DNA of 64,000 bases from Candidatus Roizmanbacteria bacterium. GTDB lineage: Bacteria; Patescibacteriota; Microgenomatia; UBA1406; HO2-37-13b. Positions 18,611-47,710 of the stretch are shown here, piece after piece. Numbering within the stretch: position 1 is the first letter of the stretch; every line of letters starts with the position of its first letter. The translations under genes were made by a program, and so were the position numbers. The notes under the pieces are model-generated. The model was not told the origin of the DNA and searched no databases. It was given only the letters and a program-made list of their open reading frames with translations. Location of the stretch: NCBI GenBank assembly GCA_038127095.1, contig JAYPGZ010000001.1, forward strand, positions 72,205-136,204. The letters run 5' to 3'.

Positions 18611-20366
18611 CTGCCAGATCCTCGGTAAGCTTAATGATGTTTAAATCATAATTATCCTGTCCAAATTCACATCTACCTAAAATTGCTTGTGGGATTTTCT
18701 TAACTGTAATATTAGCGAACTTGTTTTCAATTCCTGGAGAGAAAGACTTAGCACAAATCAAAAGACTTTCATTTTCGAGCATTTTTGCATGGATTGATTC
18801 GAGCTGTTCCATGGTTACAAATGCTGTTGTAACAAAAATGTAGTCAGTTTCTGTAGACTTACCATGCTTCCAATAAACCGATTCATCAGGACTATATTTA
18901 AATGCCTCATGTTTACATACCGCAGCAGCCAACATATTGGAATTATAATTCTCATCAATCACGAAGTTACCAAATGAGTCTTTCCTAAGTAGGCTGGGGG
19001 CAAGGTTATAAAACTTAAATCCACCTCCGCCAGTCCAGTTAACAGATCTTGAGATACCACCTTGATCCTTACCATCTACAACACTTCTAAGACGTAGAAG
19101 GCAATGAGTATAAGCATGCTCACCAAGCTCTATACCAATCCACTTTCTATTCATTTTGTGAGCAACTGCTGAAGTTGTCCCTGAACCTAGAAATGAATCT
19201 AGTACATAATCACTTGGTTCTGTTGTCATCCTTATAATTTTTTCTATCAGTGCTTCAGGCTTTTTACCGTTAGGAAATTCTACTAACCCTTCTTTTGTCA
19301 AATTATTTAAATTTAATCCATCCCAGAAAGTACCCTGTAGATCCTTTTTGTACAGAATGCCATCTTTGATCTCAAGAACATCACTTAACCACGTTATCAA
19401 TCTTAGTTTTTCACCTTTATAAAATTGTTCATAGACCTTTCCTTTATTCTTGCCACTTCTAGGCACATACTCAATTGATATTAGATCTGTCTTATGCCCA
19501 ATTTCATTAACCTTATTAAGAACTCTAACGCGAATTGAGCTTTGAGGCATCGCAGTTGTGAAGATTCTATTGTTGTATTTATAATAAGCTTCTTTTTCAG
19601 ATATATTATTTTCCTTAGCAACTTGTGAAACAGACTTAAATATTGGATTAATCCTTTCATACATCCTAATTTCATTTCCATCACCGTCAGTAGTTGATGC
19701 TATATACTTCTTCTCACCGTCGCTTAATAGAACTGATGTATACTTCCAGCTAATATTATTTGTTTTATAAGATTGTACTAACTCATATATTTCTGTTAAA
19801 TCATATACTCCCTTAAATACACTGAGCATCTGATAGTCTTTTGCAAACAAATGAATAAATTCCACATTTTTTTTAAGTCTTTTGTCCTCTCCACCACCAC
19901 TTGCACCAGCAATATTTTTCATTTTCACCGTAATTGTATTAATAAAATTTGATCTACCAAACACCTCATCCATAAGTACTCTAAGATAAGCTTGTTCCTC
20001 ATCATCAATCTGCACAAATATGACTCCATCCGATGCTAATAGTTGCTTAAGTATCATGAGTCTTGGCTTCATTAAACTCAACCACGTAGAATGTTCTAGA
20101 TTATCATCGTAATGTTCGAAGGCACTGCCAGTATTATATGGTGGATCAATATAAATACACTTTATTTTTCCAGCAAAATCCTGCTCTAAAGCTTTAAGTG
20201 CAAGAAGATTATCACCGTGGATGAGCATATTCTCGGAGTTGGGTTCGCCATAAGATTTCTCAGGATCTTCGATTAGAATTCGTGGCTCTAGTTTTAGCTC
20301 CTCATTCTTACCTATCCATGTTAATTCTAGTTTTTGTTTTGTAGGTTTACTCATAATTATGACCAA
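18579..20366 (-). CDS. mod: Type III Mod subunit, N6-adenine (beta-class) DNA methyltransferase
   Basis: IYIDPPYNTG (motif IV) preceding DSFLGSGTTSAVA (motif I), the beta-class order used by Type III Mod; 32-nt overlap with res. Confidence 0.8.
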   Translation of the reverse strand: MVIIMSKPTKQKLELTWIGKNEELKLEPRILIEDPEKSYGEPNSENMLIHGDNLLALKALEQDFAGKIKCIYIDPPYNTGSAFEHYDDNLEHSTWLSLMKPRLMILKQLLASDGVIFVQIDDEEQAYLRVLMDEVFGRSNFINTITVKMKNIAGASGGGEDKRLKKNVEFIHLFAKDYQMLSVFKGVYDLTEIYELVQSYKTNNISWKYTSVLLSDGEKKYIASTTDGDGNEIRMYERINPIFKSVSQVAKENNISEKEAYYKYNNRIFTTAMPQSSIRVRVLNKVNEIGHKTDLISIEYVPRSGKNKGKVYEQFYKGEKLRLITWLSDVLEIKDGILYKKDLQGTFWDGLNLNNLTKEGLVEFPNGKKPEALIEKIIRMTTEPSDYVLDSFLGSGTTSAVAHKMNRKWIGIELGEHAYTHCLLRLRSVVDGKDQGGISRSVNWTGGGGFKFYNLAPSLLRKDSFGNFVIDENYNSNMLAAAVCKHEAFKYSPDESVYWKHGKSTETDYIFVTTAFVTMEQLESIHAKMLENESLLICAKSFSPGIENKFANITVKKIPQAILGRCEFGQDNYDLNIIKLTEDLADDLEDEQNEQ

Positions 20367-20836: not shown

Positions 20837-23797
20837 TTAAATGATCTGCCACCTTATAGTAAACAGCGGTTCTAGTTTAGATTGCTGGGTCAATCGAGAT
20901 TCAACTGTCTCAAGCAACTTCTCTTTCTTTAATTCTACATCATCCTGTGTTTCAAATAATCTCTTCCTCATCTCATTCCTCTTCTTCTCCCAATCTTTGA
21001 TTTCGCGTTGAGCAATCAATTTTTCATCAAGATTTAATATTTTTTTTGCATTTGTTTTTGCAGTTTTTATATCAATATCAAGTTTCCTTAAATCGAGTTC
21101 CAATGCCTTTTTAACATCCTCAGCCCAGTTGTCCAACTTATCTACTTCATGATCAAAAAAGCTACCATTACGTTCAGCAATCTGACTAGTTGTAATCTTT
21201 AGATATTTATTCTCCAGTTCATCGATTTCTGTTTTTAGTTTTGGTGAGATAGCATATTGTCCTCCGATTGTAGCTGACAATTGAAATATCTTCTTAATAA
21301 CCTCTGGTTCAAGTACATCACCATCATCAGTTATAGCTGAAAACAGAATATGATCTTCTGACTCAAATGACTCAACTGTCAAGTTTGAGATTTTCAGAAT
21401 GCCCCCTTTACCTATGAGTGGCTGTAATACAGTAATAATTGTTTGGTTGTTAGAGTAGTTAAAAGCTACTTCTGCTTCATCTGACGGTCGAGATTTAATG
21501 TCATTCAATATCCTTTGAGCTAATGAATGAGCGGGTCTATACACATGTGCGTCCTCAATATTTTTTCCAATCTTATATGGGCCCGGATCAATATTCTCGC
21601 CTTCAAAAGGGTTTCGTTTGAGAACAAAAGAATATTCATTGTCTGAAAAATCAGCATTGTCTCCCAAATAGAATTTAGTTGTATCCCACAACCATCTATT
21701 ATAAGTATCTAAATACATGGCGCTTTCTCTTAAGTTGATTTTAAGTTTTTCGTGAACTTCAGCATCGAAGTTTTCGAGAAGTGTCTGCCGTGTATCTGAA
21801 AGATTATTCTTAATACTCTCATCCATTTCCTCTTGAAGGGCATCAAACGCATTATTGATTTCTTCAGTTGTTCTACATTCTTGATATATGTTGGCTATGC
21901 GCTTTTCAAAATCTACTCCAGACTCAATTGTTCCCAATACCTCGTCACTTGCACCAAAAACCCCTTTGAAAAGTTTGAATTTTTGATCAAGCAGATCATA
22001 AACCCTGCTATCAGCAGCATTTTTTCGGTTTACAAAGTTTATAACCACAACATCATGTTTTTGACCATATCGATGGCATCTACCAATACGTTGCTCGATA
22101 CGTTGTGGATTCCACGGCAAGTCATAGTTAATAACTAAAGAGCAGAATTGTAGATTTACCCCTTCAGCCGCAGCTTCAGTTGCGATCATAATTTCAGCTT
22201 CATCTCGAAAATACTCAATGAGTGCGGATCGCATATCAGCAGTTTTTGAACCTGTAATTTTGTCTGTATCCTTATTTTCCTCTAACCATTTAGCGTAGAT
22301 CTCCTTTGATTTAGGATCATTATTTGAACCATTGAAAAGTACAATTTTGCCTTTATAGCCATTCTCCGGCAACAGTGTTTCAAATAGGTACTTCTGTGTA
22401 ATAGTTGACTCAGTGAAAATGATTGCTTTCTGTTTAGCTCCCAATTCATGAGTCATCTCAAACCCCTTTTTAAGCGCAATAAGTAGCGCATCGCCCTTTG
22501 AATTGTTGAAGATTGCCTTGGCGAGGTCTCTAAATTTTTTAAGATCAACTTTCTCCTTTTCCATCAATTGAATATCTTCTTTAGTAAATTCTTTAGTTTT
22601 CTTCCCTTTTTCTTCATTTTCATCCTCATCTTCCTCATCATCAATCCACTCATCCGATATTTCATCAAAACCTTCAAAGTTCTGAGCCAAATCTGTGGTA
22701 TCGAATTCATTTTGAGTACTTTTTAAGGATATTTTAGCTTCATCTATGAGATAGCCCAACTTGATAACAAGATTATTTAATGTGCTTGCAATAGCAAAGG
22801 ATGAAGAGGCTAACAACTTGCGCAGTATTAGTGTCATTAGTTGACGCTGGCTAGAAGGTAGCGCATAGAGCGTTGGCCTTTGTAGGTATTCGGACATCCC
22901 ATCGTATAGCTCTACTTCCTGTTTTGTAGGTGTGTAATCCTGAGTGATGGGGCGTCTCTCGGTGTAATTGATATATTCTAAAACTTGCCTACGCAGGGTT
23001 CGGATACATACTACTTCTAAACGTTTTCTAAGGTCTAAAAACATTTCCTGTTTTGGCTCAACAAGTCCGACTTCATTTTCGTAAATATCTTGTTCACGTG
23101 AAACTCGAGCGTAGTTTGCCTTAAAACTTCTAAGGTCCCCAAAAACATGATCATCAATAATGCTTACCAGACCATATAATTCCAATAAAGAGTTCTGCAG
23201 TGGGGTAGCAGTAAGTAATATTTTTGGGACACCAGCAAGAGATTCCTTAATATCTCTAGCAATCTTATTACTTGTTTTATAAACATTTCGAAGTCTGTGT
23301 GCCTCATCAATAACTGCTAGGTCCCATTTTGTTTGCTTAACATATGGCGCCTTAGTTCTGGCAAAGTGATATGAACAGATTACAATCTTATCGTCTTGAT
23401 TAAAGGGATTAAGATTGCCATCTTTAATACTTTGATTAAATGATTTTGTCTCAAGAATTAAGGATGGCAAAAAAAACTTTTCCTGCAACTCAGTATTCCA
23501 CTGTTTACGCAAAGCAGCTGGTACAATGAGTAATATATTTCTCTTTCTTTCAGCCCATTTTTGAGACAATACCAACCCAGCCTCGATTGTTTTGCCCAAA
23601 CCTACTTCATCAGCAAGTATGGCTCCCCTGGAAAGAGGCGATTTAAATGCAAATAGCGCAGCTTCTATTTGGTGAGGATTGAGATCAACTTGAGCATTTG
23701 ATAGTGTTGAAGAAAGCTTTTCTAGACTATCGGATGAACACCGTTTTGTCAGCTCATAGGCAAAATATTTTGCATGATATGGAGTAATTTTTGTCAT
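20837..23797 (-). CDS. SNF2-family (Rad54/Swi2-like) helicase with ~400-aa uncharacterised C-terminal region
   Basis: ILADEVGLGKTIEAG (motif I), VIDEAHRLRN (DEAH box), ...LLTATPLQN, QRIGRCHRYGQ (motif VI); an acidic E/D stretch separates the two RecA lobes. Confidence 0.8.
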   Translation of the reverse strand: MTKITPYHAKYFAYELTKRCSSDSLEKLSSTLSNAQVDLNPHQIEAALFAFKSPLSRGAILADEVGLGKTIEAGLVLSQKWAERKRNILLIVPAALRKQWNTELQEKFFLPSLILETKSFNQSIKDGNLNPFNQDDKIVICSYHFARTKAPYVKQTKWDLAVIDEAHRLRNVYKTSNKIARDIKESLAGVPKILLTATPLQNSLLELYGLVSIIDDHVFGDLRSFKANYARVSREQDIYENEVGLVEPKQEMFLDLRKRLEVVCIRTLRRQVLEYINYTERRPITQDYTPTKQEVELYDGMSEYLQRPTLYALPSSQRQLMTLILRKLLASSSFAIASTLNNLVIKLGYLIDEAKISLKSTQNEFDTTDLAQNFEGFDEISDEWIDDEEDEDENEEKGKKTKEFTKEDIQLMEKEKVDLKKFRDLAKAIFNNSKGDALLIALKKGFEMTHELGAKQKAIIFTESTITQKYLFETLLPENGYKGKIVLFNGSNNDPKSKEIYAKWLEENKDTDKITGSKTADMRSALIEYFRDEAEIMIATEAAAEGVNLQFCSLVINYDLPWNPQRIEQRIGRCHRYGQKHDVVVINFVNRKNAADSRVYDLLDQKFKLFKGVFGASDEVLGTIESGVDFEKRIANIYQECRTTEEINNAFDALQEEMDESIKNNLSDTRQTLLENFDAEVHEKLKINLRESAMYLDTYNRWLWDTTKFYLGDNADFSDNEYSFVLKRNPFEGENIDPGPYKIGKNIEDAHVYRPAHSLAQRILNDIKSRPSDEAEVAFNYSNNQTIITVLQPLIGKGGILKISNLTVESFESEDHILFSAITDDGDVLEPEVIKKIFQLSATIGGQYAISPKLKTEIDELENKYLKITTSQIAERNGSFFDHEVDKLDNWAEDVKKALELDLRKLDIDIKTAKTNAKKILNLDEKLIAQREIKDWEKKRNEMRKRLFETQDDVELKKEKLLETVESRLTQQSKLEPLFTIRWQII

Positions 23798-26661: not shown

Positions 26662-26909
26662 AAACCCCACCTCCTTTCGATATGAAAATTGATAAATCAG
26701 GTCAGGTATGCTCCTGTCCTTCAAAAAAGGGGCATGGGGTGAAGACGTAGGCTGTCAAAAGTTTCGCAAGAAAGGATTGTAATGCCTGTCAGAAAAATGA
26801 TGACATCAATAATGAACAGTCATTATTGTCATTTTTCTACAGGTTTACATACCCGCCTTTTGACAGATGCGGCAAACCCCATAAAATAGGAAAGAAAGGA
26901 CAGGAGAGA

Positions 26910-27326
26910 CTAGCTTTGTTTAGGTTTTTCAATCACCTGAAGATACATAGAATAGTCATAATCTGCATTACCTTTTTCAAGAACATATTTTCCGGTTGGT
27001 TCATTCCCAAGCACTATACATGGAACAGCTGACTGAGCAAGTTCAAGATAGGAATAATAGGTACGATAGTCATCACTCATAATAAATAGGTCATCCTTTT
27101 GATACACATGTAAGTATGGATATCTGCCAGCTTTGATATCCATAAGCACACTATGAGAAAAGGCAGACGATGGTTCCGGTTTATATTCTGAAAATGGTTT
27201 GATTCCTTCGATTTGTATGACCGCTTTATAGAAAGGAAGCTGCTTTTGCAGCACTTTCCTAAAAAGTTCTGAAAACATAGAATCCATTGGGATTTTATTG
27301 TCTATTTTTATATCTGAAATGTTCAT
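26910..27326 (-). CDS. hypothetical protein (possibly ParB-like nuclease domain)
   Basis: 138-aa ORF; weak resemblance to the ParB N-terminal domain (...IVLG...), not secure. Confidence 0.35.
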   Translation of the reverse strand: MNISDIKIDNKIPMDSMFSELFRKVLQKQLPFYKAVIQIEGIKPFSEYKPEPSSAFSHSVLMDIKAGRYPYLHVYQKDDLFIMSDDYRTYYSYLELAQSAVPCIVLGNEPTGKYVLEKGNADYDYSMYLQVIEKPKQS

Positions 27327-27555
27327 GGGTGATTAGATATGCTAAAAAGACCTTCAGCCGGTCACAAACTAGTAGTGCTGACTATTATAGCAGTATTTAT
27401 GCGATAACAGACAAAGGGATGGTAAGTATTAAGGTTTTTTAGAAATTTATTTTCTCGAATTTTTCTGATAAGAAAAATTAAAACGGCGAGGTAAAAAGCC
27501 TTGAAGTATCTGTTTCCGGAATCCGTTCACTATAATAGGGATTTTATTTATATAT

Positions 27556-28608
27556 ATGCCTATAACTGTGAACAATTCAACATATAAAACGCTTATCAGC
27601 ACTGATAATATATTTAAGGCATGGTATGCCTTTCGGAAAGGAAAGCGAAAAAAGCCCGATGTAATGTTCTTTGAGCGCCATCTTGAAGATAATTTGTTTG
27701 CACTGCAGGATGATCTGGAGAAGGGTCAGTACCGCCATTCGGGATATCTTGAATTTACGGTACAGGATCCTAAAAGTCGACTCATTCACAAACCACATGT
27801 CAGAGACAGGGTTGTTCACCAGCTTCTGTATGAATATCTCTATAAACTTTATGACAAAACTTTTATCTACGACTCATATTCATGCAGAATTGGTAAGGGA
27901 ACGCATAAGGGTGTCGGAAGGCTTATTCAGTTTAGTATAAAAGAATCGCAAAACTATTCACGTAGCTGCTGGAGTGTAAAATGCGATATAAAGAAGTTTT
28001 TTGCAAACATTGATCATAAAGTCCTTCATGATATTCTCGTACGTAAAGTACATGATCCACTTATACTTTTTCTGCTTGATATCGTTATTGACAGCTTCCA
28101 TACGAAAGATGCCCTTGGCAAAGGCCTCCCATTAGGAAACCTCACCAGTCAGATATTTGCAAATATTTACATGAATGAATTTGACCAGTTCATAAAACAT
28201 AAGCTTAAGGTTATATATTTCATTCATTATGCCGATGACTTTATCCTGGTTTCACATAACAGAGTATATCTTGAACAGCAAATTGAGCCAATGAGAACAT
28301 TTCTGAAAGATACCCTAAAATTAACTATGCACCCTGACAAAGTTATCTTTAGAAAACTCGACTGGGGTATTGATTTTTTAGGGTATATTGTGCTTCCCCG
28401 GTATGTTTTACCCAGAACTGCAACAAAGCATCGCATATTCAGAAAAATAAAGAAACGTGCAGATGAGTATCTCGATGGTGATATTTCCATGTATCAGCTG
28501 AGACAGTCGGTACAGTCATACCTTGGATATCTGTCACATACTGACGGATATAAGCTTTCACTGGAAATTAAAAATTACGTCTGGTTTCTGACGGGCGAAT
28601 CAGTATAA
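27556..28608 (+). CDS. diversity-generating retroelement (DGR) reverse transcriptase
   Basis: RT motifs 1-7 including FIHYADDFIL (YxDD) and the DGR-specific LGNLTSQ variant in motif 4 (LPLGNLTSQIFANIYM). Length (350 aa) and the adjacent Avd/TR/VR support the call. Confidence 0.85.
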   Translation: MPITVNNSTYKTLISTDNIFKAWYAFRKGKRKKPDVMFFERHLEDNLFALQDDLEKGQYRHSGYLEFTVQDPKSRLIHKPHVRDRVVHQLLYEYLYKLYDKTFIYDSYSCRIGKGTHKGVGRLIQFSIKESQNYSRSCWSVKCDIKKFFANIDHKVLHDILVRKVHDPLILFLLDIVIDSFHTKDALGKGLPLGNLTSQIFANIYMNEFDQFIKHKLKVIYFIHYADDFILVSHNRVYLEQQIEPMRTFLKDTLKLTMHPDKVIFRKLDWGIDFLGYIVLPRYVLPRTATKHRIFRKIKKRADEYLDGDISMYQLRQSVQSYLGYLSHTDGYKLSLEIKNYVWFLTGESV

Positions 28609-28967
28609 TGAATGGCACTATGTTTCAGCTTGATATTCCGCTTCTTGACAAATTATATGCGTTTTATAAAGAAATCACAGTTGTTATTGTTTCCTTCCCA
28701 AAATCACGTAAATATACACTCGGAGAGCATATTGAAAGACTGACCCTTGAGATTATTGAACTTGTCATATCTGCCGGATATAAACCAAAGGAGGAGAAGC
28801 TGGAGACCGTTTATGAGATCAGTGCAAAGCTTGATGTTTTGAAAATGCTGGTTCGCCTAGCTTATGAGACAAAATGTATGCAGAGCAAGGATTACCAGTG
28901 CCTGTCAGCTGATCTTTCAGAGACCGGCAAAATGACAGGCGGCTGGATCAAATCCTTAAAACAGTAA
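28608..28967 (+). CDS. avd: Avd-like four-helix-bundle accessory variability determinant
   Basis: 119 aa; FPKSRKYTLGEHIERLTLEIIELVISA matches the FPK..K..L..Q..R...SI pattern of Avd / four-helix-bundle (23S rRNA-IVS protein) family; start overlaps the RT stop by 1 nt. Confidence 0.7.
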   Translation: MNGTMFQLDIPLLDKLYAFYKEITVVIVSFPKSRKYTLGEHIERLTLEIIELVISAGYKPKEEKLETVYEISAKLDVLKMLVRLAYETKCMQSKDYQCLSADLSETGKMTGGWIKSLKQ

Positions 28968-28977
28968 TGGAACGCTC

Positions 28978-29089
28978 TCAGGGGACGGAAACCGGTATTG
29001 TCATTGTGATTGGACGCATTGTTCCAATTGACGTTCGACAAACCACCATTATCGGAATTACCACCGATGAGACGGCTATCGGAACCGAA
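28978..29089 (-). repeat. DGR template repeat (TR), sense on minus strand
   Basis: 112 nt identical to 29472..29583 except at 21 positions, all of which are T on the plus strand (A on the minus-sense TR). Non-coding: lies between avd and the target gene's 3' end. Confidence 0.85.
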
Positions 29090-29455
29090 CCAACGTGCTT
29101 CTCTCCTATTCCGACTCACTGTGCCCAGATTACTCCACAACACTGTATTTTATACGTTTTATCTTTTTATGAAATAAAACTAACAGAGAAGCACACACAG
29201 CTTTCCTTCCTGTTTATATTCCCGCCGGCATATTTACGCTTCTTTTCCCACATAAGAGAACAGAACTCTGAAAGTGATGCCGGGAGAAAGCAGAGCAGCC
29301 GGCAGGCGTACCTGACCGGATAGTGGCTTTGCTAAGGTCAATTGTAGCAGATAATATTCGGAAATCTCAAAAAATTTTTTGGCTTCGCCAAAATCCAAGA
29401 ATCCAATACACAAAACACCAATACAAGAACCAAGATAATCAAGAGTACAAGGATT

Positions 29456-32017
29456 TTAGGAAGAGAAAACTATCAGGGGACGGAAACCGGCATAGTCAAA
29501 GTGAGTGGACGCAAAGTTCCAATGGACGTTCGACAAACCACCATAAGCGGAAAAACCACCGATGAGACGGCCATCGGAACCGAATTGATCATGCATCCAT
29601 TCATATGTACTTGTTTCACCCCATTCCGGATGATCTCTATTGCCTAGTATGTTGAATTCGATCTCACGCATATTACGCGCCTGTACATGTTCCGGTAGTT
29701 CAAGTAAACGCTGGAGGGCAGGGTAGAAATGCTCATATTGTTCATTTGGGGATATCTTTGCACGGGAATTGGCAGCTGCGTTTGGGCCAATACCCTGAGC
29801 TCTCAGATCTTCGAGAATGGATGCCCATGGGTCATTGGCGTAAACCTGACTACCGTTGTAGTTTCCGTTACTATCTTGTGCGGCGTTTGGTTTTGCGGTT
29901 ATATCAACTACCGCCCAGAACCCGCCAAGTTTTGCTGCATCCTGAGCAAGTTTTTTATTCGGACCAATCTCATTCCAGAAGTATGTATCATTCGGCGTCT
30001 TTATCCATCCTGGATAATCATCATCTTTCTTAAATTCTCTTTGGGGAAAGTAAACAGGTTTAAGGTGATCTCTTATGCCAAGTTCCTCTGCTTTTGCAAG
30101 AGCATCAAGAAGTTCCTGTGGAGGAGGAGGTACTTCTATTTCCTGTCCCAGAAACTCCCTCCATTTGTATGATTCCGCTTCCCGAAGTTCATGTTCCTGT
30201 AATGAATCTGCTGTGCGTTCACTTCTTCCCTGCATTGGGTTTGAAGTAGCCTGCGTTTCGCCTGCAGCCATTTCTGACGGTAGGATATAGCCTTTTTCTT
30301 GTTCTTCAATCTCAACCTGTATTTGGGGAGATACAGCATCCCTTGTTAAACCAAATGAATGAAGCACTTCCAGCAATGTTTTTCGCTCCTCAGGAACACT
30401 GAGCGTTTTAGGGTCGTTAATGAATTCGCCTAGTTTTTTCTGCATGTACGTTGCAAAATCATCACCCCTCGCGCGGGATAATTTCCATTCACCAAAGAGT
30501 TTAAACAATGTTCCCGGATCAAGAAAATTTGTATTAAGTGTTGTTTCTGTATTGTTTTGAGGGTCAATTCCAAGTGATGTTTTCATCGCTGGAGTAAAAC
30601 CAGCGAAATCACGATTATGTATCTGCTGCATCATTTGAGCCGCTTCAGACAATCTTCTAATATAATCAGCTTCAGCTTTACTCAGCCCCAGTACTCCATT
30701 TTCTTCAATCAATGTGGCCTTGATAACATCAGCCATTTCTGCGGCCGGCATATAACTAACCTCTACTCCTGTAAGCTCCCGTAAAATCGCCGGATCCATA
30801 TCTTCCCGCTGTTTTGTTCGCTCATCTTTAGGATTACCAGTCAAGATTTCGACGAAATTATTTGTGACATCAAAAACCTGTCCATTAAATCCTGGGATTT
30901 GAATTCTATCCCCTGGCCGTGCCCCTTGCATAAATTTTGTAGCAAGCTGCGTTCTGGTTGATCCTCCCGTATATTCATCGTGTAATACTCCGACTCCTCT
31001 TTCCAAAGCCTTTGGTACAGGTCCGGTCTTCATGCCACTTTGAACTCCTCCTTCATCATCAGTCCAAAGCTCACGATATCCAAACACATCTCGAGGAGTG
31101 GTTCCTTCATGCCAATTGATAATCTCATACCCTCCCGTCAGTGAATTTAACACATACAGACCCAGCTTGGTTTTCCCTGTACCAGTTGAGCCGACAAGAA
31201 AAATTTTGTTTCCTGCAATTGCTTCACGCGACATGCGGTCAATTAATTCTAAACGGGAAGGAGTCAGCACAACACCGTTTTCTTCGAGTTGTTTTTTATA
31301 ATCTAGCATCCTTTGCGCTTCAAGATAACCCAAGGTTGAGGGAGAGGCAGTTTCAACAATGCCAGATCGCTTTGCTTTTAGTTCGTCCAGTTTTCCTTGG
31401 AAAAGACCAATTTGATCAGCAGCACTTTGTGTCAGCGTGCCATGTTGTTGAGTGCTGTCTAAATATCTTCTATAAATTGCAAGTCGTAGTTTCTCTGTTA
31501 CCCGGTCAATATCCCGTACCTCTCTCATAGGACGACGCGCTGCCTGAAAGTGGGCAAACTCCCTGTCAAATTCTGATTCAAAACGCTCGCGTACTTGCGG
31601 TTGAGATAGAAGATCAGACAACTTTAGTCCTATTACGTCCCTATGTAAAGCAGAACTCGGAGCTTCTTCGTTTGTTGCATCGGGCGTGCCATCATGCGCA
31701 TCCCATGATCTTACGTTATTAGGTAGTAATAAATTGTCAAGTTGTCTCTCCAAACTATTCAGATCATCTCCTTCCTCAAGCTGTATGTCTGGTACGACGT
31801 GATCCGGAGTACGATAATATTCCTCAAGATATCCTAACACTGAAAAGCATTTATCCTGAACATCTGCTGGAGATAATTCTGTTGAGGCAGTAGCACTTGC
31901 TTCGTTTGGTATAAACCTGCGAAAAGAAAGAGGTGCAAGACGATGGCGTGCATGTGTGATTTGTTGTACGGAAAATGCTTCTGTTCCTGTTGGTTCGGAC
32001 ATAATCGTATTATACAA
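29456..32017 (-). CDS. DGR target protein: MoxR-like AAA+ ATPase with C-terminal lectin-like (FGE/CLec-fold) variable domain
   Basis: Walker A FLVGSTGTGKTKLG, Walker B VGVLHDEYTG; C-terminal ...WxW...GFRPL containing the VR; no signal peptide or TM helices. Confidence 0.75.
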   Translation of the reverse strand: MYNTIMSEPTGTEAFSVQQITHARHRLAPLSFRRFIPNEASATASTELSPADVQDKCFSVLGYLEEYYRTPDHVVPDIQLEEGDDLNSLERQLDNLLLPNNVRSWDAHDGTPDATNEEAPSSALHRDVIGLKLSDLLSQPQVRERFESEFDREFAHFQAARRPMREVRDIDRVTEKLRLAIYRRYLDSTQQHGTLTQSAADQIGLFQGKLDELKAKRSGIVETASPSTLGYLEAQRMLDYKKQLEENGVVLTPSRLELIDRMSREAIAGNKIFLVGSTGTGKTKLGLYVLNSLTGGYEIINWHEGTTPRDVFGYRELWTDDEGGVQSGMKTGPVPKALERGVGVLHDEYTGGSTRTQLATKFMQGARPGDRIQIPGFNGQVFDVTNNFVEILTGNPKDERTKQREDMDPAILRELTGVEVSYMPAAEMADVIKATLIEENGVLGLSKAEADYIRRLSEAAQMMQQIHNRDFAGFTPAMKTSLGIDPQNNTETTLNTNFLDPGTLFKLFGEWKLSRARGDDFATYMQKKLGEFINDPKTLSVPEERKTLLEVLHSFGLTRDAVSPQIQVEIEEQEKGYILPSEMAAGETQATSNPMQGRSERTADSLQEHELREAESYKWREFLGQEIEVPPPPQELLDALAKAEELGIRDHLKPVYFPQREFKKDDDYPGWIKTPNDTYFWNEIGPNKKLAQDAAKLGGFWAVVDITAKPNAAQDSNGNYNGSQVYANDPWASILEDLRAQGIGPNAAANSRAKISPNEQYEHFYPALQRLLELPEHVQARNMREIEFNILGNRDHPEWGETSTYEWMHDQFGSDGRLIGGFSAYGGLSNVHWNFASTHFDYAGFRPLIVFSS
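29472..29583 (-). repeat. DGR variable repeat (VR) encoding the last ~37 aa of the target protein
   Basis: Direct alignment with TR; every mismatch corresponds to a TR adenine (minus sense), e.g. AAY(N) to TTY(F)/TAY(Y)/CAY(H)/ACY(T), GAY(D) to GCY(A). Confidence 0.85.
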
Positions 32018-32021
32018 AATT

Positions 32022-34676
32022 TTATAATTTCGATAAATGCTTCATTAGTAATTTATGTCGTACAAGCGTTGCCTGCCGAACGTCATCAATGACAACGGCA
32101 GCATCCGGATCGGCAGGGTCATGACAGACAACTTTAATATCTTGAGCAGCGCTTCCAAATCCAATACCCTGAACAATAATTCCTGCAGCTCGTAATTCTC
32201 CAATTAAAGCAACGCACTCCGCTTGGTTTGTTACATCTCCGTCTGAAACAATAGTCAAAACCTTAGAATGTCCGCCTGCCCTAATTTTCTGAACTGTCTG
32301 TGGATCAAGCGCGTCACGATATTGCTGTAATGATGCCTGTAGCCCTCGTGATGATTGGTTGTGAGCTTTTAATGTACCGTCAAGCTGTACAAGGCCTTTC
32401 TCGGATATTTCACCTGTTGATTCCTGAGCAACACTTGTCCAGTCACCAAATACAGCGACTCTTGAACGGACTGAAAGAGGGGTCGTCATATGTCTTTTAT
32501 ATCGTGAATGTCCTAACCGTTCGTTTAGATTTTTAATGTTGTATTCACTACTTAACACCATCTTTCGCTGTTCCTCAGCTGGCTGACCACTCATTGATCC
32601 CGAAATATCTAAGATAAAGTCATCTTCAAAAACAGAAACTTCAATTCGCTCTCTTTGTCTTTCATGTGATTTTTGGTACCCTGATGGATCATCCTCCTGT
32701 GAACGAACGTCAATATATGCAGTTACGGGATCGTCTAAAAATTCACCTTCACTTTGCCTGACGGGTCCTTTATATGCTGCATGGGGAATTTCTCTCCGCC
32801 TATAGAGAAGCTCAAATAAATCACGCCATTCCTGGTATAACGTACTTGGCCTATGACTAATACTTGCTTCGGCAGGAACTGGAGTCCGATTTACTCCATT
32901 TATCCATGATTCCAGTTGATTCCATTCACGCAATGACACACCTTTTTCCTGTTGGAATGCCTCAGCCGCACGTTGCTCCTGAGTTTGTGTAGGTAAAGCA
33001 GCTCCATCATCCTGCTTAGTTAGTTCTTCATACAGCAGTTCTATTTCTTCCTGACTTAATTCGGGTTGCTCAACCGTTGATTCTCCAAAATCACCATCAA
33101 GGGGTTGCGACTCCTCAGCTTGATCCGGTGATTCATCCTGCGCCTTTGGTGGAGTTGCATCCATACCACGATGAGTCCATTTTTTTGCATGAGGATCCCA
33201 TATCTCTCCCCATGCATGCTTATCCACACCTGGTGCTTCTACTACGGTAAACTCGAATCGAGGATCTTTACTATTAATATATGGCCCTGTTGCAATTCGA
33301 GAAGCAATTCCAAGTCTTTTACACAACTCGTCTCGGAAAATATTTGCCCAATAACAATGAGCAACACCTGTTTCAGCAATTTTTGTCCATATATCGTCTC
33401 CTGCGGACAAATATAACGAGTCTATCTGTCCTATTTCCGCTTCATCAGCCGGATAACGGAGTTTCTTACGAACATAGAGGACAACTTCCCGCGCTTTTTG
33501 AACATCATTCATCCAGTTTTGACCGGATAGTTCATCAAGAAATAATTGTGTTTCTGGATCTACATTTCCGCCTACTGGAGTCAAGTCATCTTCTGTGGGT
33601 GGCATGTCCAACTTATTTGATTGGGTTTTAGCTAAAACAAAGTCAAATGAAAATTGTCCTGTTGGTGCTGTTTGTACTTGTGTTTGTCTTGGGTCAAGAT
33701 ACACGATTCCTAAGTCATCACGCATAAGCTGGAATGCTCCTGGGGGATTAAGGGTTGAAGCAATAGGGAGTGTGCCATAGGGCAGTTTGATAAGAGTTTC
33801 ATCACCTGGCTGAATAGTTCCCTCATATGTCCTTCTTGTTTTCCAGATAGCTTCATCTTCGGGAACATCATCTATATCCCATGTTTGTTTGGTGCCAGCT
33901 TCTTTGACAATCTGGCGGGTAACAGGATCATAACGACAAACTTGCTCACGGTAATACCCTCCATAAAATGGCGTGACACGAACAGTGATATCCGATTCCT
34001 GCAGCGGTTCTTTGTCTCCGGCCACATCCTGTGTTTGAGATGGTCGATATTCAAATTGCTTTGATTGACCGGTCTGTCGGTCGGCAGCAGTAAGCTCATC
34101 AATAATTGGTTGAATATGAGTTGTAAAATTCTGACCGTCAAACCTTAAATATCGTCCTGAGGCAATATAATCAATTAAACTACGTCCCTTCGTGCGAGGG
34201 ATATCTGTTATTGCTTTGCGAACCGGATCTGAAACTGTATCGGGATATTTACCGGTTAGTATATATGTATCGAGTGCCCATTGGAATTCCTGAGCAAGTG
34301 TTTGATTTTGAGGAGTAATTGGCTTATCGCGAAGAATATCAGGATTACTTTCTCTCAGTCTTGCCAGTCCTTGCCATCTGAGGACTGGCTCACTTGCTTC
34401 TGGATACCTGCGGGCGGATTCTATTAAGAGGTTTGCATTAGTACGTAGAGCCTGTGTGAGTCCGATATGTCCGGCAACTTGTCGTACTATTGCAATGCGG
34501 GCCTGATCGATATTTGGAAACAATGCTGTATTAACAGAAAGTTCTGAACGATCATCAGACCAGGCAATTCGTATTCCAGTATCTCGAGTTTTTACCGCAA
34601 TACCGCCAAGTAATTCACTTGGTTCAGAAGGTGGAGCAGTAGTTTCTGTAATATCTGCAGTTGGTTGCTCTGCCAT
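32022..34676 (-). CDS. transglutaminase-like cysteine-protease-fold plus von Willebrand factor A (vWA) domain protein
   Basis: GVAHCYWANIFRDELCKRLGIASRIATGPY...HAWGEIW (transglutaminase-like Cys/His core) and C-terminal DISGSMSG (MIDAS DxSxS)...VLTIVSDGD; 4-nt gap to the downstream AAA gene. Confidence 0.7.
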   Translation of the reverse strand: MAEQPTADITETTAPPSEPSELLGGIAVKTRDTGIRIAWSDDRSELSVNTALFPNIDQARIAIVRQVAGHIGLTQALRTNANLLIESARRYPEASEPVLRWQGLARLRESNPDILRDKPITPQNQTLAQEFQWALDTYILTGKYPDTVSDPVRKAITDIPRTKGRSLIDYIASGRYLRFDGQNFTTHIQPIIDELTAADRQTGQSKQFEYRPSQTQDVAGDKEPLQESDITVRVTPFYGGYYREQVCRYDPVTRQIVKEAGTKQTWDIDDVPEDEAIWKTRRTYEGTIQPGDETLIKLPYGTLPIASTLNPPGAFQLMRDDLGIVYLDPRQTQVQTAPTGQFSFDFVLAKTQSNKLDMPPTEDDLTPVGGNVDPETQLFLDELSGQNWMNDVQKAREVVLYVRKKLRYPADEAEIGQIDSLYLSAGDDIWTKIAETGVAHCYWANIFRDELCKRLGIASRIATGPYINSKDPRFEFTVVEAPGVDKHAWGEIWDPHAKKWTHRGMDATPPKAQDESPDQAEESQPLDGDFGESTVEQPELSQEEIELLYEELTKQDDGAALPTQTQEQRAAEAFQQEKGVSLREWNQLESWINGVNRTPVPAEASISHRPSTLYQEWRDLFELLYRRREIPHAAYKGPVRQSEGEFLDDPVTAYIDVRSQEDDPSGYQKSHERQRERIEVSVFEDDFILDISGSMSGQPAEEQRKMVLSSEYNIKNLNERLGHSRYKRHMTTPLSVRSRVAVFGDWTSVAQESTGEISEKGLVQLDGTLKAHNQSSRGLQASLQQYRDALDPQTVQKIRAGGHSKVLTIVSDGDVTNQAECVALIGELRAAGIIVQGIGFGSAAQDIKVVCHDPADPDAAVVIDDVRQATLVRHKLLMKHLSKL

Positions 34677-35213: not shown

Positions 35214-36224
35214 ATGAAGTTTATCTATACACTTCTCATTCTTTCAATATTTCTTTTTAACACGTCTTCCGTTCTTGCCCAAAACTCTCCAACACCCACG
35301 TCAAAACCTCAAGTTCAATATACAAACGAATTTACCGTTGAAAATCAGCCCTCTGGGGTTGTGACATTGCTGCAGGATTTCATAAAAGGTTTTGATTCCT
35401 TTGTCGGAGGATTTGTCTTTTATACCCCAAATCCCCTTGATAAAACGATTACCTTACAAGATAAATCAGAAATACCCGGAGTTACTAAATACCGCGATAT
35501 GTTCTATCAGATTGCCATACCCGTACTTGCTATTATTATTGCGGCTATTGCCGTTTCAAAGCTTGGATCGGATAATACCCAAGAGCTCAAAAACTTTGCC
35601 GTACGGTTTGTCATAACCATCGTCTTATTCATCACCGTACCCCACGCCCTCTCATACAGCATACAAGCAAATAACTTACTCGTTGAGAAAATATCAACGA
35701 CACAAAAGTTCACGGGCTTTTTAGATGACTACTTTACCAAAACCCAAGAAAAGATTAATCAAGGTGAAAGCGCAGAGCAATATGGTATTCCGTCATTTGA
35801 TATATCGCTTATCGGAGGCATTTTCAAATCCTTTGGTAAATTCATCGTTCAGATATTTCTTTTTATCTTAACCTTCTTGTTTCTTCTTATGGGTTTCTTG
35901 TACTTAGGTTTCCAATTTGTTATCCGTTTTGCTGCACTTTTGTTTCTAGGTGTATTGTATCCAATCATCATTCCCTTTATGTTGTCTGAGAAAACACAGC
36001 CGATTGTACAAACATTTTTCAAATCGTGGCTCACGTTCCTGATCCAACAACCAGCCTTTGTTCTGGGCTTTGCGATTGCTACTGATATCTTTACGAGCAT
36101 TCTCCAGTCAAAAGGCCCGAGTGTAGGCATGCTTTTCTTCTATACCGGCTTCTTATTTTTCCTCGGCGGCGTGAATATCTTGGTCTCCCGCATCTTCGGG
36201 GGGCTGGACGGGCGAGACTCTTGA
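35214..36224 (+). CDS. VirB6/TrbL-like polytopic membrane protein
   Basis: Signal peptide (…SSVLAQNSP), soluble region, then ≥5 TM helices in the C-terminal half; position next to the pilin gene. Confidence 0.4.
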   Translation: MKFIYTLLILSIFLFNTSSVLAQNSPTPTSKPQVQYTNEFTVENQPSGVVTLLQDFIKGFDSFVGGFVFYTPNPLDKTITLQDKSEIPGVTKYRDMFYQIAIPVLAIIIAAIAVSKLGSDNTQELKNFAVRFVITIVLFITVPHALSYSIQANNLLVEKISTTQKFTGFLDDYFTKTQEKINQGESAEQYGIPSFDISLIGGIFKSFGKFIVQIFLFILTFLFLLMGFLYLGFQFVIRFAALLFLGVLYPIIIPFMLSEKTQPIVQTFFKSWLTFLIQQPAFVLGFAIATDIFTSILQSKGPSVGMLFFYTGFLFFLGGVNILVSRIFGGLDGRDS

Positions 36225-37403: not shown

Positions 37404-38213
37404 ATGAAAAGTGTGCGGATATATAAAGACAATATTCGAGAACATGTATTGCGAAGTCTATTTTTTACCGATACCGCAATTGCTATCGGCGGAGCGATTG
37501 TGATTGCTGCCGTCGTATTTGTCATATTCAAATATTTCCTGCATTTCTTTGATTGGGGATATTATGGATTGACGGTTCTTACCTGCGAAGTGTTTTTCAT
37601 TGGACTGGTTACGCAAAAGCTTGATAATCAGCCTATCTACAAGATTGTGCCACGGGGATTGAAACATTCGGTAAGCAAAAAGAATTTACGCCATGCTGAT
37701 ATTGATTCATACTTCACTGACTTTGCAATTCAAGACAATCTGATTGTCCGCAAAAACAGTATTATCTCGATGCTTGCGGTTGAGCCGTATGACATTGCAC
37801 TCCTTAATGATCAAGACCGAGAACATTTCTTTGTCAAAATCAAGCAAATGATCCATGTCTTGCCCTCAGGAGTCCAGTTTATTATCAGAAAAGAAAGAGC
37901 AACGATGGAAGAATATTCAAAGCATGTGTCTTCCTTATACAAAGATGCCAACACTAAACGAGAACCACTGATTCACAATTACTTAAAAGATCTATCAGAT
38001 CTCATCAGTAACCACTCATTTGTCACCATGCGCCACTACGCGGTGTTTTCCGTCAGTTGTGACAGCAAAAAGGCCAATGAAAAGGTAAAAGCAATCAAGA
38101 AGTTATCAGATATGAGTATTCGATTTGCCTCGGCATTGTCTGCCTGCAATATTACGGCTACACCACTTACAAACAATGAACTGTTACACGTTGCAACCAC
38201 CACCCTACGATGA
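37404..38213 (+). CDS. membrane protein, possibly VirB3-like / VirB4 N-terminal-like partner
   Basis: Two N-terminal TM helices; 4-nt overlap with the VirB4-like ATPase gene. Confidence 0.4.
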   Translation: MKSVRIYKDNIREHVLRSLFFTDTAIAIGGAIVIAAVVFVIFKYFLHFFDWGYYGLTVLTCEVFFIGLVTQKLDNQPIYKIVPRGLKHSVSKKNLRHADIDSYFTDFAIQDNLIVRKNSIISMLAVEPYDIALLNDQDREHFFVKIKQMIHVLPSGVQFIIRKERATMEEYSKHVSSLYKDANTKREPLIHNYLKDLSDLISNHSFVTMRHYAVFSVSCDSKKANEKVKAIKKLSDMSIRFASALSACNITATPLTNNELLHVATTTLR

Positions 38214-40366
38214 GAAAAACAACCAAAAAACAAACCAATGGGAAACATCCGAACAAGGTACTTATTACGCTGGATCGCTTTAATGTGAGTCGAAAGCTAA
38301 AAGAAGAAGTAGAGCTTTTAAGTATTGAAAAGGCAAAGAAGGTATATGAACTTAACAAAGTCCTGAAGGAATACAAACTTTATGAAAAGAAAAATACGGG
38401 ACTGCAAAAAATTGAGGAACATTTCTTTAATGGAGAACCAAAACTGCACCAAAATGCACTCACCCTGGCACTTCGGGAAGAAATTGGGCGACTCATGGAT
38501 ATTATCAAGTCACAACAGGAGATGATTGCCAAAGAATCATTTGTGCAGAATGAATTACCACAAATACGCAAGCCTGAGTTTGTTGCAAGCAACAATCCGA
38601 TCAAGCTACTTCGCAATTACCGAGCATATAAAAAAGAATTGCAAGAATATCATCAGGCTATCCATGAATCAAATATAACTGATTTTCATTTTGTCCTTGA
38701 AAAAGATGAAAAAGGATTAGTCATTGAGCGAGATGGAACCAAGAAATACAAAGCAGACTATTTACAGGAAAAAAGTTCTCATTTGCAAGTCGGTGAAAAA
38801 GTCAGGCGATTCTACTATTTAGCTGATATTCCCGCTTACTTAAGTCCCTATGTGTTTTTTAGACTGCTAACTTCCAGTTTACCGTTTACCTTAAGCGTCT
38901 TTGTACAACCAACACCGAGTGGTGAACTTTTGAAAAAAGCCAGACAAAGACTCTCTGTCTTGGAAATGCAGCAAAACGATCGGTTGAAAGCTGGAAAACT
39001 CAGAGATCAACAGATTGATAAAAATATCGAGGAGGTTATGTCCTTTATTGATGAACTTGTGCATGAAGCCGAGAAAGGGATTGTGTATTCATTGTATTTA
39101 CAGCTTGAAGCTGACAGTGAAAAAAAACTCGCTGCGCTTCATAAGCAACTCCAAAACGTAACAAGTGCGATGGATATTACATTTAATCAATATACCTTCG
39201 GTCACAAGAGAGCATTCAAGAATTTCTTACCCTTTAATCAAGATCATGTCAAAGAAAATAGGATTTTGCAGTCAACGGCAGCTTCATACTTGATGCCGTT
39301 TGTGTCAAAACAGTTAAATGATCACAATGGTATTTTTATGGGTGTGAATGCATACAATAATAGCTTGGTGTTTATTGATCCATTTACCTCCCGAAACAAT
39401 AATATCAACATCTTTGGTGTCTCGGGGTCTGGTAAAAGTGTGACAGCTAAAACCTTGATGAACCGCCTCTATATGCGTGGTGTGCAAATCATTGTCATTG
39501 ATCCTGAAGGAGAATATATTGATCTTGCCAGATCTTTAGGAGGAGAAGTTATTCAATTTTCGAGAGAGAATGGGATTAACCCTTTTTATATCAATAGCTC
39601 TAATGAAAATGATATTTTAGATCATATCTCAACGCTTAAAACCTTCTTCAAATTCTTTATCCCCGAACACCACTACGATGGCGCACTTTTAGATGAAAAG
39701 CTCATTAAGCTCTATGACAGCTCATCGCCGTCATTTGAGAACTTACTGGAGCTTCTAGGTGATAGTCCCATGACACGAGATTTGAGTGTGTTATCAGATG
39801 GAAGTTTGCGGGGTGTATTTAACTCAACTCGACGACTTGAGCTCAATAACGACATCATTGTCCTTGATTTGCATGACCTGAAAAAAGATGAGAAACGAGA
39901 TCCTGCCATCTATCTTTTGACGTCGCTTATTTGGAACTTGGTTAATAAGGCAAATGGTAAGAAACGCATGCTCTTTATTGATGAAGCGCACAAGTTACTG
40001 GTTGATCCAGAGGTCGCTGTATTCTACCGAGAATTGGTCAAGCAGGCTCGTAAGCGCAATGTGGGAGTCGTGTCGATTACGCAGGATGTCGAAGACTTTT
40101 TGCATAATGAATATGGCAAAGCGATTATTACGAACTCTGAAACAAAAATTTTACTCAAGCAATCATATGCCACGCTTGATCAGATTGGCACGATTTACCC
40201 CATGACGGATGAGGAAAAACAGCAATTGGGACATTTGGAGATTGGAGAAGTAGTACTTTTCAGAGAAGGAGAACATATTCGACTCAATATCTTAGTATTA
40301 CAACATGAGCAAAACTTAGTATTTACCTCATTTAGTACTTCGCATGAGTCTGATCAGCAAAGTTAA
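38210..40366 (+). CDS. VirB4/TraC/TrbE-like conjugative ATPase
   Basis: Walker [27 protein letters not shown], Walker B KRMLFIDEAHKLL, C-terminal ...VSITQ. Confidence 0.75.
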   Translation: MRKTTKKQTNGKHPNKVLITLDRFNVSRKLKEEVELLSIEKAKKVYELNKVLKEYKLYEKKNTGLQKIEEHFFNGEPKLHQNALTLALREEIGRLMDIIKSQQEMIAKESFVQNELPQIRKPEFVASNNPIKLLRNYRAYKKELQEYHQAIHESNITDFHFVLEKDEKGLVIERDGTKKYKADYLQEKSSHLQVGEKVRRFYYLADIPAYLSPYVFFRLLTSSLPFTLSVFVQPTPSGELLKKARQRLSVLEMQQNDRLKAGKLRDQQIDKNIEEVMSFIDELVHEAEKGIVYSLYLQLEADSEKKLAALHKQLQNVTSAMDITFNQYTFGHKRAFKNFLPFNQDHVKENRILQSTAASYLMPFVSKQLNDHNGIFMGVNAYNNSLVFIDPFTSRNNNINIFGVSGSGKSVTAKTLMNRLYMRGVQIIVIDPEGEYIDLARSLGGEVIQFSRENGINPFYINSSNENDILDHISTLKTFFKFFIPEHHYDGALLDEKLIKLYDSSSPSFENLLELLGDSPMTRDLSVLSDGSLRGVFNSTRRLELNNDIIVLDLHDLKKDEKRDPAIYLLTSLIWNLVNKANGKKRMLFIDEAHKLLVDPEVAVFYRELVKQARKRNVGVVSITQDVEDFLHNEYGKAIITNSETKILLKQSYATLDQIGTIYPMTDEEKQQLGHLEIGEVVLFREGEHIRLNILVLQHEQNLVFTSFSTSHESDQQS

Positions 40367-41111
40367 GACGGCTCATGCGTTTAAAAATGATCCGTTTGGC
40401 TTTATAGCTGATCTGGTCATTACCGTTATTGCCAACCTCGTTATTCCCATTCCTTTAGCTGGAGAAGCCCTGAAAGCATTTAAAGGTCCCATCTTGTGGC
40501 TCCTTGGCTCATTCATCCTCCTTGGGATATTTATGCTGATTGTCATCGGAACCGTTGTCTTTTCTCCCGTGATTGTCAGTACTACCTTTTTTGATCGTAT
40601 TGCTACACTTGGAACTCCAGGTTCGCTTAATGTTTCATATGATGGCACATTTGCCGAGACCTCTATCCCATATCAAAATCCACTTGGTGGAACTGGCATG
40701 ACCTATACCTCAGTTACTGCATACTTTCATGACCCTGCCTACTTTCTGCAATTTGGCAGGATTCATAACGGAATAGATTTAGTTCCAACCGACACATATT
40801 ACAAAAATAGCAAAACATATCAGGAAGTACATCAAGTGATCGCGTTTTCAACTATTAATGGCAACGCACGATCATATATTGATGAGTTTGGATCACAAAC
40901 GGTGGAAGTTACGAATGATGATAGTACCTTACAAGCTGTCTTTATGCATTTTAAGCAGATATTAGTAAATGATGGAGAAATCAAGGCAGGAACACCACTA
41001 GGCGTTATGGGGAAAACAGGGCTCGCGACTGGAGAACACGTACATTATGAAATACGAGTTAAAAGTGGTTCAAACTGGACACCGGTTAACGCATTAAGTT
41101 ATATACAATAA
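40344..41111 (+). CDS. M23-family peptidase (peptidoglycan hydrolase, VirB1-analogous) with N-terminal TM anchor
   Basis: HNGIDL...FMHF...GEHVHYEIR signature of LytM/M23 metallopeptidases. Confidence 0.7.
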   Translation: MSLISKVKTAHAFKNDPFGFIADLVITVIANLVIPIPLAGEALKAFKGPILWLLGSFILLGIFMLIVIGTVVFSPVIVSTTFFDRIATLGTPGSLNVSYDGTFAETSIPYQNPLGGTGMTYTSVTAYFHDPAYFLQFGRIHNGIDLVPTDTYYKNSKTYQEVHQVIAFSTINGNARSYIDEFGSQTVEVTNDDSTLQAVFMHFKQILVNDGEIKAGTPLGVMGKTGLATGEHVHYEIRVKSGSNWTPVNALSYIQ

Positions 41112-45951: not shown

Positions 45952-46025
45952 GGTCGCTTAGCTCAGTTGGTTAGAGCACTGCGTTTACATCGCAGGTGTC
46001 AGGGGTTCGAGTCCCTTAGCGACCA
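45952..46025 (+). tRNA. tRNA-Val(TAC)
   Basis: Acceptor GGTCGCT/AGCGACC, anticodon loop TTTACAT, T-arm AGGGGTTCGAGTCCCTT. Confidence 0.8.
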
Positions 46026-46026
46026 C

Positions 46027-47701: not shown

Positions 47702-47710
47702 ATCTGTTTT

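Follow-up and report, generated by a model that had tools for sequence, protein, structure and literature searches.

A diversity-generating retroelement of the Patescibacteria clade with an inverted reverse transcriptase gene and conserved RNA structure beside its template repeat

Diversity-generating retroelements (DGRs) in the candidate phyla radiation (CPR), or Patescibacteria, are largely built to one plan: 90% of CPR DGRs have architecture B3, template repeat (TR)-(avd)-reverse transcriptase (RT), and Midasin/AAA proteins are found among their targets (Wu et al. 2018, PMC5758913). CPR DGRs with AAA-ATPase targets are attributed to Paul et al. 2017, as cited in PMC10907252, and are represented in those parts of Wu et al. 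2018 that treat the 'CPR set', architecture B3 and the UVR4/Midasin-AAA targets (PMC5758913). The Bordetella BPP-1 DGR (mtd-avd-TR-brt) carries all its parts on one strand, and has the large RNA that envelops its RT (Sp, 140 nt, Rfam RT-10) on the 3' side of the TR (10.1101/2023.10.23.563531; PMC5737381). Here we describe a DGR within a 64,000-nt stretch of Candidatus Roizmanbacteria DNA (contig JAYPGZ010000001.1). This whole stretch is referred to as the window and all positions are window coordinates. The element belongs to a known class, as AAA-lectin proteins are the commonest type of CPR DGR target, and it is very probably an intact DGR of the CPR clade that works by the minus-strand mechanism proposed below. 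It differs from its relatives in the orientation of its RT gene and in the position of an RNA stem-loop, and its TR is preceded by a structured RNA that is conserved across the clade. The core of the cassette consists of the following features.

27556..28608, plus strand: DGR reverse transcriptase gene, 350 aa, Pfam RVT_1 (E 6.7e-21)
28608..28967, plus strand: avd accessory gene, 119 aa, Pfam bAvd (E 3e-20)
28978..29089, minus strand, which is the adenine-bearing sense strand: template repeat (TR), 112 nt with 26 A
29473..29584, minus strand: variable repeat (VR), which codes for the target's C-terminal tail
29456..32017, minus strand: DGR target gene, an 853-aa open reading frame (ORF) with a helical N-terminal region, a MoxR/NorQ-class AAA+ core and a C-terminal formylglycine-generating enzyme (FGE)/C-type-lectin (CLec) domain

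Comparison of the window with itself reveals a direct repeat at an offset of 495 nt, in which 28963-29089 pairs with 29458-29584. An initial annotation of this DNA had proposed two 112-nt repeats here; both are present, with the TR exactly where it was placed and the VR, given as 29472..29583, shifted by one base to 29473..29584. When aligned on the minus strand, TR and VR differ at 13 positions over the 112-nt core (A>T 8, A>C 3, A>G 2) and not at the 21 originally counted. The other part of that claim, that every difference sits at an adenine of the minus-sense TR, holds on realignment: tabulated by TR base, 13 of 13 differences fall on adenines and none of the 86 non-adenine positions differs. 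With 26 A in 112 nt, the probability of all 13 falling on A by chance is ~3e-10. All 26 adenines occupy codon positions 1 or 2 and none position 3. Sixteen TR codons are variable in the sense of bearing an adenine, nine of them AAY, and mutagenesis of the TR adenines permits up to ~6e14 protein variants with stop codons impossible. The differences now present alter 10 amino acids. The TR and VR peptides quoted earlier are exact, and an additional change, S>G, lies just upstream of them. At the other end of the repeat an 18-nt GC-rich stretch (29473-29490) is identical in VR and TR and is followed by immediate divergence, a pattern that by sequence resembles the initiation of mutagenic homing (IMH) element. 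A GC inverted repeat is not present after the VR, where a T-rich repeat array occupies its place. Neither BLAST nor an A-to-N tolerant scan detected further TR copies or VRs in the window.

The RT carries the motifs LGNLTSQ (G194-Q199) and YADD (225-228), as first described, and both are invariant among its relatives. Its closest solved structure is Bordetella bRT (8ub7, E 6.4e-36), ahead of group II intron RTs (3e-17) and a retron-type RT (1e-14), and it scores 124 bits on the NCBI group II intron RT model, for which the cut-off is 300. With a motif 4 of the form [ILV]GxxxSQ, the protein is by sequence a DGR-type RT that is nearer to bRT than to intron or retron RTs, although homologous RTs are partly labelled 'retron-type' or 'maturase' in their source databases. 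The neighbouring protein, initially called Avd-like, reaches 88.2 bits on the DivGenRetAVD equivalog (NCBIfam NF033474), above the cut-off of 80. The earlier assignment of the locus as a DGR is therefore upheld by profile comparison of both proteins as well as by the strictly adenine-specific divergence of the repeats. That assignment mentioned neither the antisense position of the TR relative to RT and avd, nor a MoxR-class AAA+ target of the type usual in CPR DGRs, nor the structured RNA ahead of the TR. The RT stop and avd start codons overlap as TAATG, which suggests that the two genes are translationally coupled within one operon. A phage origin of the cassette was considered and rejected, with the best phage RTs no more than 39% identical and no phage structural genes nearby.

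The target probably begins at the ATG at 32002, which yields a protein of 848 aa rather than 853, in agreement with database protein P0001 and starting at a methionine (M6) that is invariant across homologues. The earlier description of an 853-aa gene ending in the VR thus stands as to its C-terminus and probably not as to its length. The core contains an AAA_5 domain. In an AlphaFold model built with 24 homologues supplied (mean pLDDT 72), the AAA+ core resembles NorQ and CbbQ, with a TM-score of ~0.79 on the target. NorQ and CbbQ are MoxR-class ATPases operating with von Willebrand factor A (vWA) partners. The modelled C-terminal fold matches FGE/CLec proteins, which include the DGR targets TvpA and Mtd; a lectin-like tail had been recognised from the sequence. 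The VR lies at the 3' end of the target ORF and, in the model, inside this C-type-lectin fold, as is expected of a DGR.

The arrangement of these parts was compared across 85 loci, comprising 80 from a scan of species-representative genomes and five other related loci. The 80 scanned loci are mostly labelled Patescibacteria/CPR and their RTs are 46-58% identical to the window RT. Nearly all 85 have the order VR(+), TR(+), avd(-), RT(+), in which avd and RT stand head-to-head. In the window alone among the 85, RT and avd point the same way, antisense to the TR. Architecture B3 has avd antisense and the RT sense to the TR, the two genes head-to-head. The window avd is antisense to the TR as in B3, while its RT is also antisense and upstream of avd, and the locus consequently falls outside the B3 definition. 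The convergent junction of TR and avd is kept in all loci except two. In these (L014 and L022) TR and avd are on one strand and the RT on the other, with the VR on the far side of the RT; a further locus (L027) has an inverted VR beyond the RT. Because Wu et al. 2018 already recorded DGRs with TR and RT on different strands (PMC5758913), the gene arrangement of the window is a rare variant and not a new kind. Otherwise the element resembles described CPR DGRs closely, sharing the RT clade, the avd gene convergent on the TR, the AAA+ target with its C-terminal variable tail, the upstream vWA partner and a single VR ~400-500 nt upstream of the TR. Besides the flipped RT, which forms one operon with avd, the window departs from them in having no intergenic hairpin between TR and avd and in the FGE/CLec fold predicted for its VR domain, since Wu et al. 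left the fold of UVR4 open.

Two further features of the related loci were noted in passing. In canonical CPR loci (L013 6617-8011; L003 3417-4814; most B3 loci) only 0-50 nt, and in some cases nothing, separates the start codons of the divergent avd and RT genes, such that each promoter would have to sit within the opposite gene. Three loci (L015, L057 and L071) have a second TR/VR pair and a second avd on the TR strand, between VR and TR; this second pair follows the Bordetella-like order target-avd-TR, a few kb from a B3-type DGR.

Both flanks of the TR hold RNA structure on the TR-sense strand, which appears to be undescribed on the 5' side and, in its relocated form, on the 3' side.

29095..29335, minus strand: structured leader RNA of ~230-240 nt, directly 5' of the TR, detected by covariance models R1 and R2
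28882..28978, minus strand: long stem-loop directly 3' of the TR in TR-sense RNA, antisense within the last ~85 nt of avd

With two exceptions among 64 related spacers, the stretch between VR and TR is 230-470 nt long. It contains no conserved ORF, and more than 20 loci share 76-85% DNA identity in its 3' half. A small conserved protein in the spacer was considered and rejected, as the ORF similarities, found on both strands, reflect DNA/RNA conservation. An RNAalifold consensus from an 18-sequence alignment contains 56 pairs, 38 of them compensatory. Two covariance models were built, R1 from 18 relatives and R2 from the nine closest loci, with the window left out of both. R1 has a single match in the 64 kb, searched on both strands, at 29350..29081(-); it spans the full model and scores 22.5 bits (E 2.2e-5). 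R2 matches at 29200..29095(-) with 35.6 bits (E 3.8e-9). Across 83 sources R1 yields one match each in 62, all ending at the TR start on the TR strand, and with filters off it recovers five further close relatives of the window at the same position with 18-25 bits. The placement holds even for L014 and L022, whose leaders abut the TR on the TR strand despite the inversion of the TR relative to the RT. In the resulting 62-sequence alignment, which was fitted to the model and is biased towards structure to that extent, 94.4% of cells are paired, compared with 60% on shuffling and 40-47% with slid partners, and 54 of 56 pairs are doubly changed. A covarying leader RNA is thus conserved across the clade and has a significant model match in the window. 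Its last helix pairs 29194-29185 with 29104-29095 and ends 5 nt short of the TR. A tentative long-range helix may join two leader domains, CCAGUAUC with GAUACUUGG, represented in the window by GCUUUCU with GGAAAGC; the complementarity recurs with differing sequences in subgroups and is not significant in any one sequence. R1 found no leader RNA beside the second TRs of L015, L057 and L071.

The leader was also compared with catalogued RNAs. Only tRNAs reach the Rfam gathering score in the window and 23 related loci, and an Rfam search of the window's TR region by E-value gave nothing relevant. Weinberg et al. 2017 defined motifs RT-1 to RT-19 by their proximity to RT genes, with RT-10 being the Bordetella spacer, and speculated that further RT motifs belong to DGRs (PMC5737381). 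One of these, RT-16 (RF03019), weakly matches the leader of a single relative, L055, at 24.3 bits against a threshold of 50. The shared part is the 3' half of the L055 leader, with a hairpin, an outer long helix and a AUAAAAUACAG...GGUG core, and the CPR leader has an extra 5' domain of ~120 nt. In the window itself RT-16 has no match within 28800-29500 even at E<=10. The papers searched, whose coverage is limited, describe no 5' RNA for CPR DGRs.

The stem-loop on the 3' side has a minimum free energy of -35.3 kcal/mol (z -3.4), and none of 200 shuffles is as stable. In most relatives the TR is followed by ~20 nt, a GC hairpin with a U-run and then the avd stop codon. In the window only 10 nt separate TR and avd stop, with no intergenic hairpin, and structure is found instead in the antisense of avd. 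Among 62 loci the pattern is a reciprocal one: antisense-avd ends are structured in the 11 that lack an intergenic hairpin, the window and its closest relatives among them (median z -2.69), but not in the 51 that have one (median z +0.45; Mann-Whitney p 7e-5). The window stem uses the codons of a conserved Avd motif (28918-28938) that reads GKMTGGW here and GKMLGGW in most relatives, and it is the L-to-T codon that makes the 8-bp stem (GCCUGUCA/UGACAGGC) of the antisense RNA complete. According to a preprint on Bordetella cryo-EM, putative Avd-binding stem-loops occur widely just downstream of the TR, CPR included, and a duplex abutting the TR halts cDNA synthesis (10.1101/2023.10.23.563531). 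By analogy, the 3' stem-loop may serve in Avd binding in the window, and the final leader helix as the cDNA stop.

Between the target stop codon and the leader, on the minus strand, lie a repeat array, a terminator-like hairpin and a promoter-like site, in an order that is the same in relatives.

29395..29455, minus strand: T-rich array of ~9 short repeats (CTTG/TTGG) with a period of 7-9 nt, just past the target stop codon
29377..29393, minus strand: terminator-like hairpin and T-run, predicted to end the target transcript, with a similar layout in related spacers
29341..29370, minus strand: promoter-like site TTGAGA-18-TACAAT with a TG extension, 10/12, the best consensus match of the region

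Counted over the 64 related spacers, the motif YTTNG has a density of 4.2 per 80 nt within the first 80 nt past the VR and of 1.1 elsewhere, an enrichment of about four-fold, and its modal spacing is 8 nt. The array may be a target-site feature that substitutes for the GC hairpin of Bordetella. Its variants CCTTTG, CTTGG and CTTGA are seen in L001-L085 as well. Relatives have a TGnTAnAAT box at the same place before the leader RNA.

Evidence for ongoing diversification comes from related loci. The target has 44 homologues, and all of those that carry an organism name belong to Patescibacteria/CPR groups. Their tails share the scaffold TYEW..R[LV].VG.S..GGA....W..P..S....GFR.AVV, in which the positions not fixed are hypervariable, and the contigs that bear them hold the same cassette (vWA partner, VR-bearing target, TR, avd and RT). 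TR/VR mismatches in these cassettes, too, are adenine-specific, a pattern that recurs in ~60 loci. Within 90%-identity clusters of orthologues from different samples, the differences fall into the last 60 aa in 10/10, 12/15, 14/17 and 13/16 cases, and mosaic variants occur among near-identical orthologues. On this population evidence, which derives from relatives and not from the window copy, the target family diversifies actively. For the window copy, an assembly from Logan SRR26337526 (L086) is 100% identical over 26825..29604. The L086 contig stops exactly 30 nt past 29574, the VR equivalent of the outermost TR adenine. At k=31, allele-specific paths in the Logan assembly graph would presumably merge at that point, and the contig end may be taken as a weak hint of VR heterogeneity in this copy.

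These observations can be combined into a molecular model. The target operon would terminate at the terminator-like hairpin, and a separate promoter would drive an RNA composed of the ~240-nt leader, the 112-nt TR and the 3' stem-loop that extends antisense into the end of avd. RT and Avd, produced from the opposite strand as a coupled RT-avd operon, would act on this RNA in trans, copying the TR into cDNA with misreading of adenines. With the GC-rich IMH-like end as guide, the cDNA would then take the place of the VR in the 3' terminal part of the target gene, and up to 16 codons (~6e14 variants) would be recoded on the ligand-binding face of the FGE/C-type-lectin domain. The variable domain is predicted to be fused to a cytoplasmic MoxR-class AAA+ ATPase, partnered by a transglutaminase-vWA protein, and the target would serve as a variable ligand or 'antigen' sensor. 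The components, the adenine-only footprint, the fold, the conserved RNA with its position and the diversification of relatives are shown by the analysis, and the transcript ends, the roles of leader and stem-loop, the action of RT in trans, current activity of this copy and the biological role of the target are the parts of the model that we infer. A more general proposal extends it to the large CPR clade of DGRs, in which the scaffold that recruits RT and Avd and bounds the cDNA would be the ~230-nt domain 5' of the TR, permuted with respect to the 3' Spacer of Bordetella. Its 10-12-bp final helix would act as the cDNA stop and the 3' stem-loop would serve in Avd binding or priming; in the window the stem-loop would have moved into avd antisense, and the RT flip would demonstrate that RNA and enzyme act in trans. 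We offer this extension tentatively, and rate its chance of being correct in full as somewhat below even.

Several findings weigh against an intact and working element. The unique orientation of the RT leaves room for a recent rearrangement that may have impaired function. The protein cluster of the window target has a single member, and the VR of the sole other assembly, L086, is identical. The leader scores modestly under the broad model R1 (22.5 bits), model confidence is low over the VR itself (pLDDT 44-55), the predicted promoter and terminator are consensus matches only, and the placement of the RT draws on best matches and motifs rather than on phylogeny. The first of these points could be extended to the view that the locus is a relic in which the parts are recognisable and homing has been lost, possibly through the flip of the RT from a head-to-head layout, with the 13 adenine-site differences recording past activity. 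An RT orientation unique among 85 loci would be in keeping with this, as would the fact that no VR variants of this copy are on record. We consider a relic distinctly improbable. Decay is argued against because the RT and avd ORFs are full length, with a catalytic YADD and a clean TAATG overlap typical of a selected operon, because TR and VR have no non-adenine difference over 86 positions while their flanks diverge at once, and because the leader helices and 3' stem-loop are intact. A TR and RT on different strands is, moreover, an arrangement noted in other DGRs by Wu et al. 2018 (PMC5758913).

A different objection concerns the conserved RNA, which could instead belong to the 3'-UTR of the target gene, or be a separate small RNA accompanying the cassette, and in either case be no part of the template RNA. 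The spacer does also hold a terminator-like hairpin and a repeat array. In 62 sources, however, the end of the RNA falls a few nt at most from the TR start, always on the TR strand, and in L014 and L022, where the VR lies across the RT, it tracks the TR and not the target or the RT. A conserved -10-like box precedes the RNA and follows the terminator-like hairpin, and the 3' half of the RNA is similar to Rfam RT-16, which belongs to the motifs that were defined by nearness to RT genes (PMC5737381). A role outside the template RNA is unlikely in the light of these points. Finally, the locus could be no DGR at all, but a duplicated gene fragment next to a retron or group II intron RT, with an accidental adenine bias, a view to which the 'retron-type' and 'maturase' labels of some homologous RTs lend their only encouragement. 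It is effectively refuted by the chance probability of ~3e-10, the Avd score over the equivalog cut-off, the 124 bits against 300 on the group II model, bRT as the best structural relative, the recurrence of the TR/VR pattern in ~60 related loci, and a window in which group II intron and retron RNA families have no match. The intact CPR DGR remains our strongly favoured interpretation.

Features that the element shares with Bordetella BPP-1 are the adenine-specific transfer from TR to VR, Avd, a bRT-homologous RT, TR codons rich in AAY, a target tail of (predicted) CLec fold and an end that is GC-rich and IMH-like by sequence. In contrast to BPP-1, the large conserved RNA of the window is 5' of the TR and only a stem-loop is 3' of it, the target is a cytoplasmic ATPase and not a phage tail fibre, and T-rich repeats rather than a GC hairpin follow the VR. 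Taken by itself the element is one more CPR AAA-lectin DGR, and its value lies in comparison with its relatives. The window copy represents a natural experiment in which the RT is inverted and the 3' stem-loop lies inside avd, while the unit of leader, TR and stem-loop is retained. Retention of the unit despite both changes suggests that in the template RNA the functional core is leader-TR-stem-loop. Because the flanking RNA of Bordetella has been shown by cryo-EM to control priming, processivity and termination (10.1101/2023.10.23.563531), the different RNA organisation of the most abundant DGR lineage is directly testable, and it is relevant to the engineering of DGR-based mutagenesis tools.

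The partner gene directly upstream of the target is more conserved than the target and the RT.

32022..34676, minus strand: upstream partner, transglutaminase-core and vWA protein, 884 aa, Pfam Transglut_core, with VWA slightly under the cut-off

Its identity to the gene at the corresponding position of L001 and L004 is 66-73%, compared with 48-53% for the target and ~50% for the RT. DGR-linked MoxR-vWA 'VMAP ternary' conflict systems are described from cyanobacteria and gammaproteobacteria (Kaur et al. 2020, PMC7159879; Dore et al. 2024, PMC10907252), and likewise combine a MoxR-class ATPase and a vWA protein with a DGR-diversified FGE/CLec domain as the presumed sensor. They differ in that the vWA protein bears the variable domain and a third protein, VMAP, is present (PMC7159879), whereas in the window the variable domain is borne by the ATPase and the vWA partner has a transglutaminase core. 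A VMAP-like third gene was not recognised nearby, although no VMAP-specific search was made, and no PADLOC model matches target, partner or Avd.

The cassette looks to be carried by a ~36-kb island resembling an integrative conjugative element (window 6688-43446), and related cassettes occupy unrelated neighbourhoods. Large serine recombinases are encoded at 6688-8478, next to a tRNA gene (6765-6846), and at 41998-43446. Between them are genes for a VirD4-like coupling protein (9365-11911), a VirB4-like ATPase (38210-40366), TrbL/VirB6 (35214-36224) and an M23 peptidase (40344-41111). The island also holds Replic_Relax, RadC, DUF2958 and a tandem FtsK-gamma protein, together with type III restriction-modification genes (15938-20366) and an SNF2 helicase (20837-23797). 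RuvB (5741-6742) is encoded immediately outside it. Further tRNA genes are found at 45952-46025 and as a cluster of three at 47615-47894, and an ORF at 45967-46470 that overlaps the first of these is probably spurious.

Some minor observations concern individual related loci. In L001 an avd gene at 10168-10539 (-) had been overlooked by the gene caller and was recovered by tblastn; it overlaps the called RT start, and a called 95-aa ORF at 9946-10233 is the TR read in the VR frame. A LOOT RNA (RF03000, 58.5 bits) is located ~7 kb from the related DGR in L037 (8605-8728). In L042 the 3' end of a 16S rRNA gene (1-541) lies ~1.8 kb upstream of the VR.

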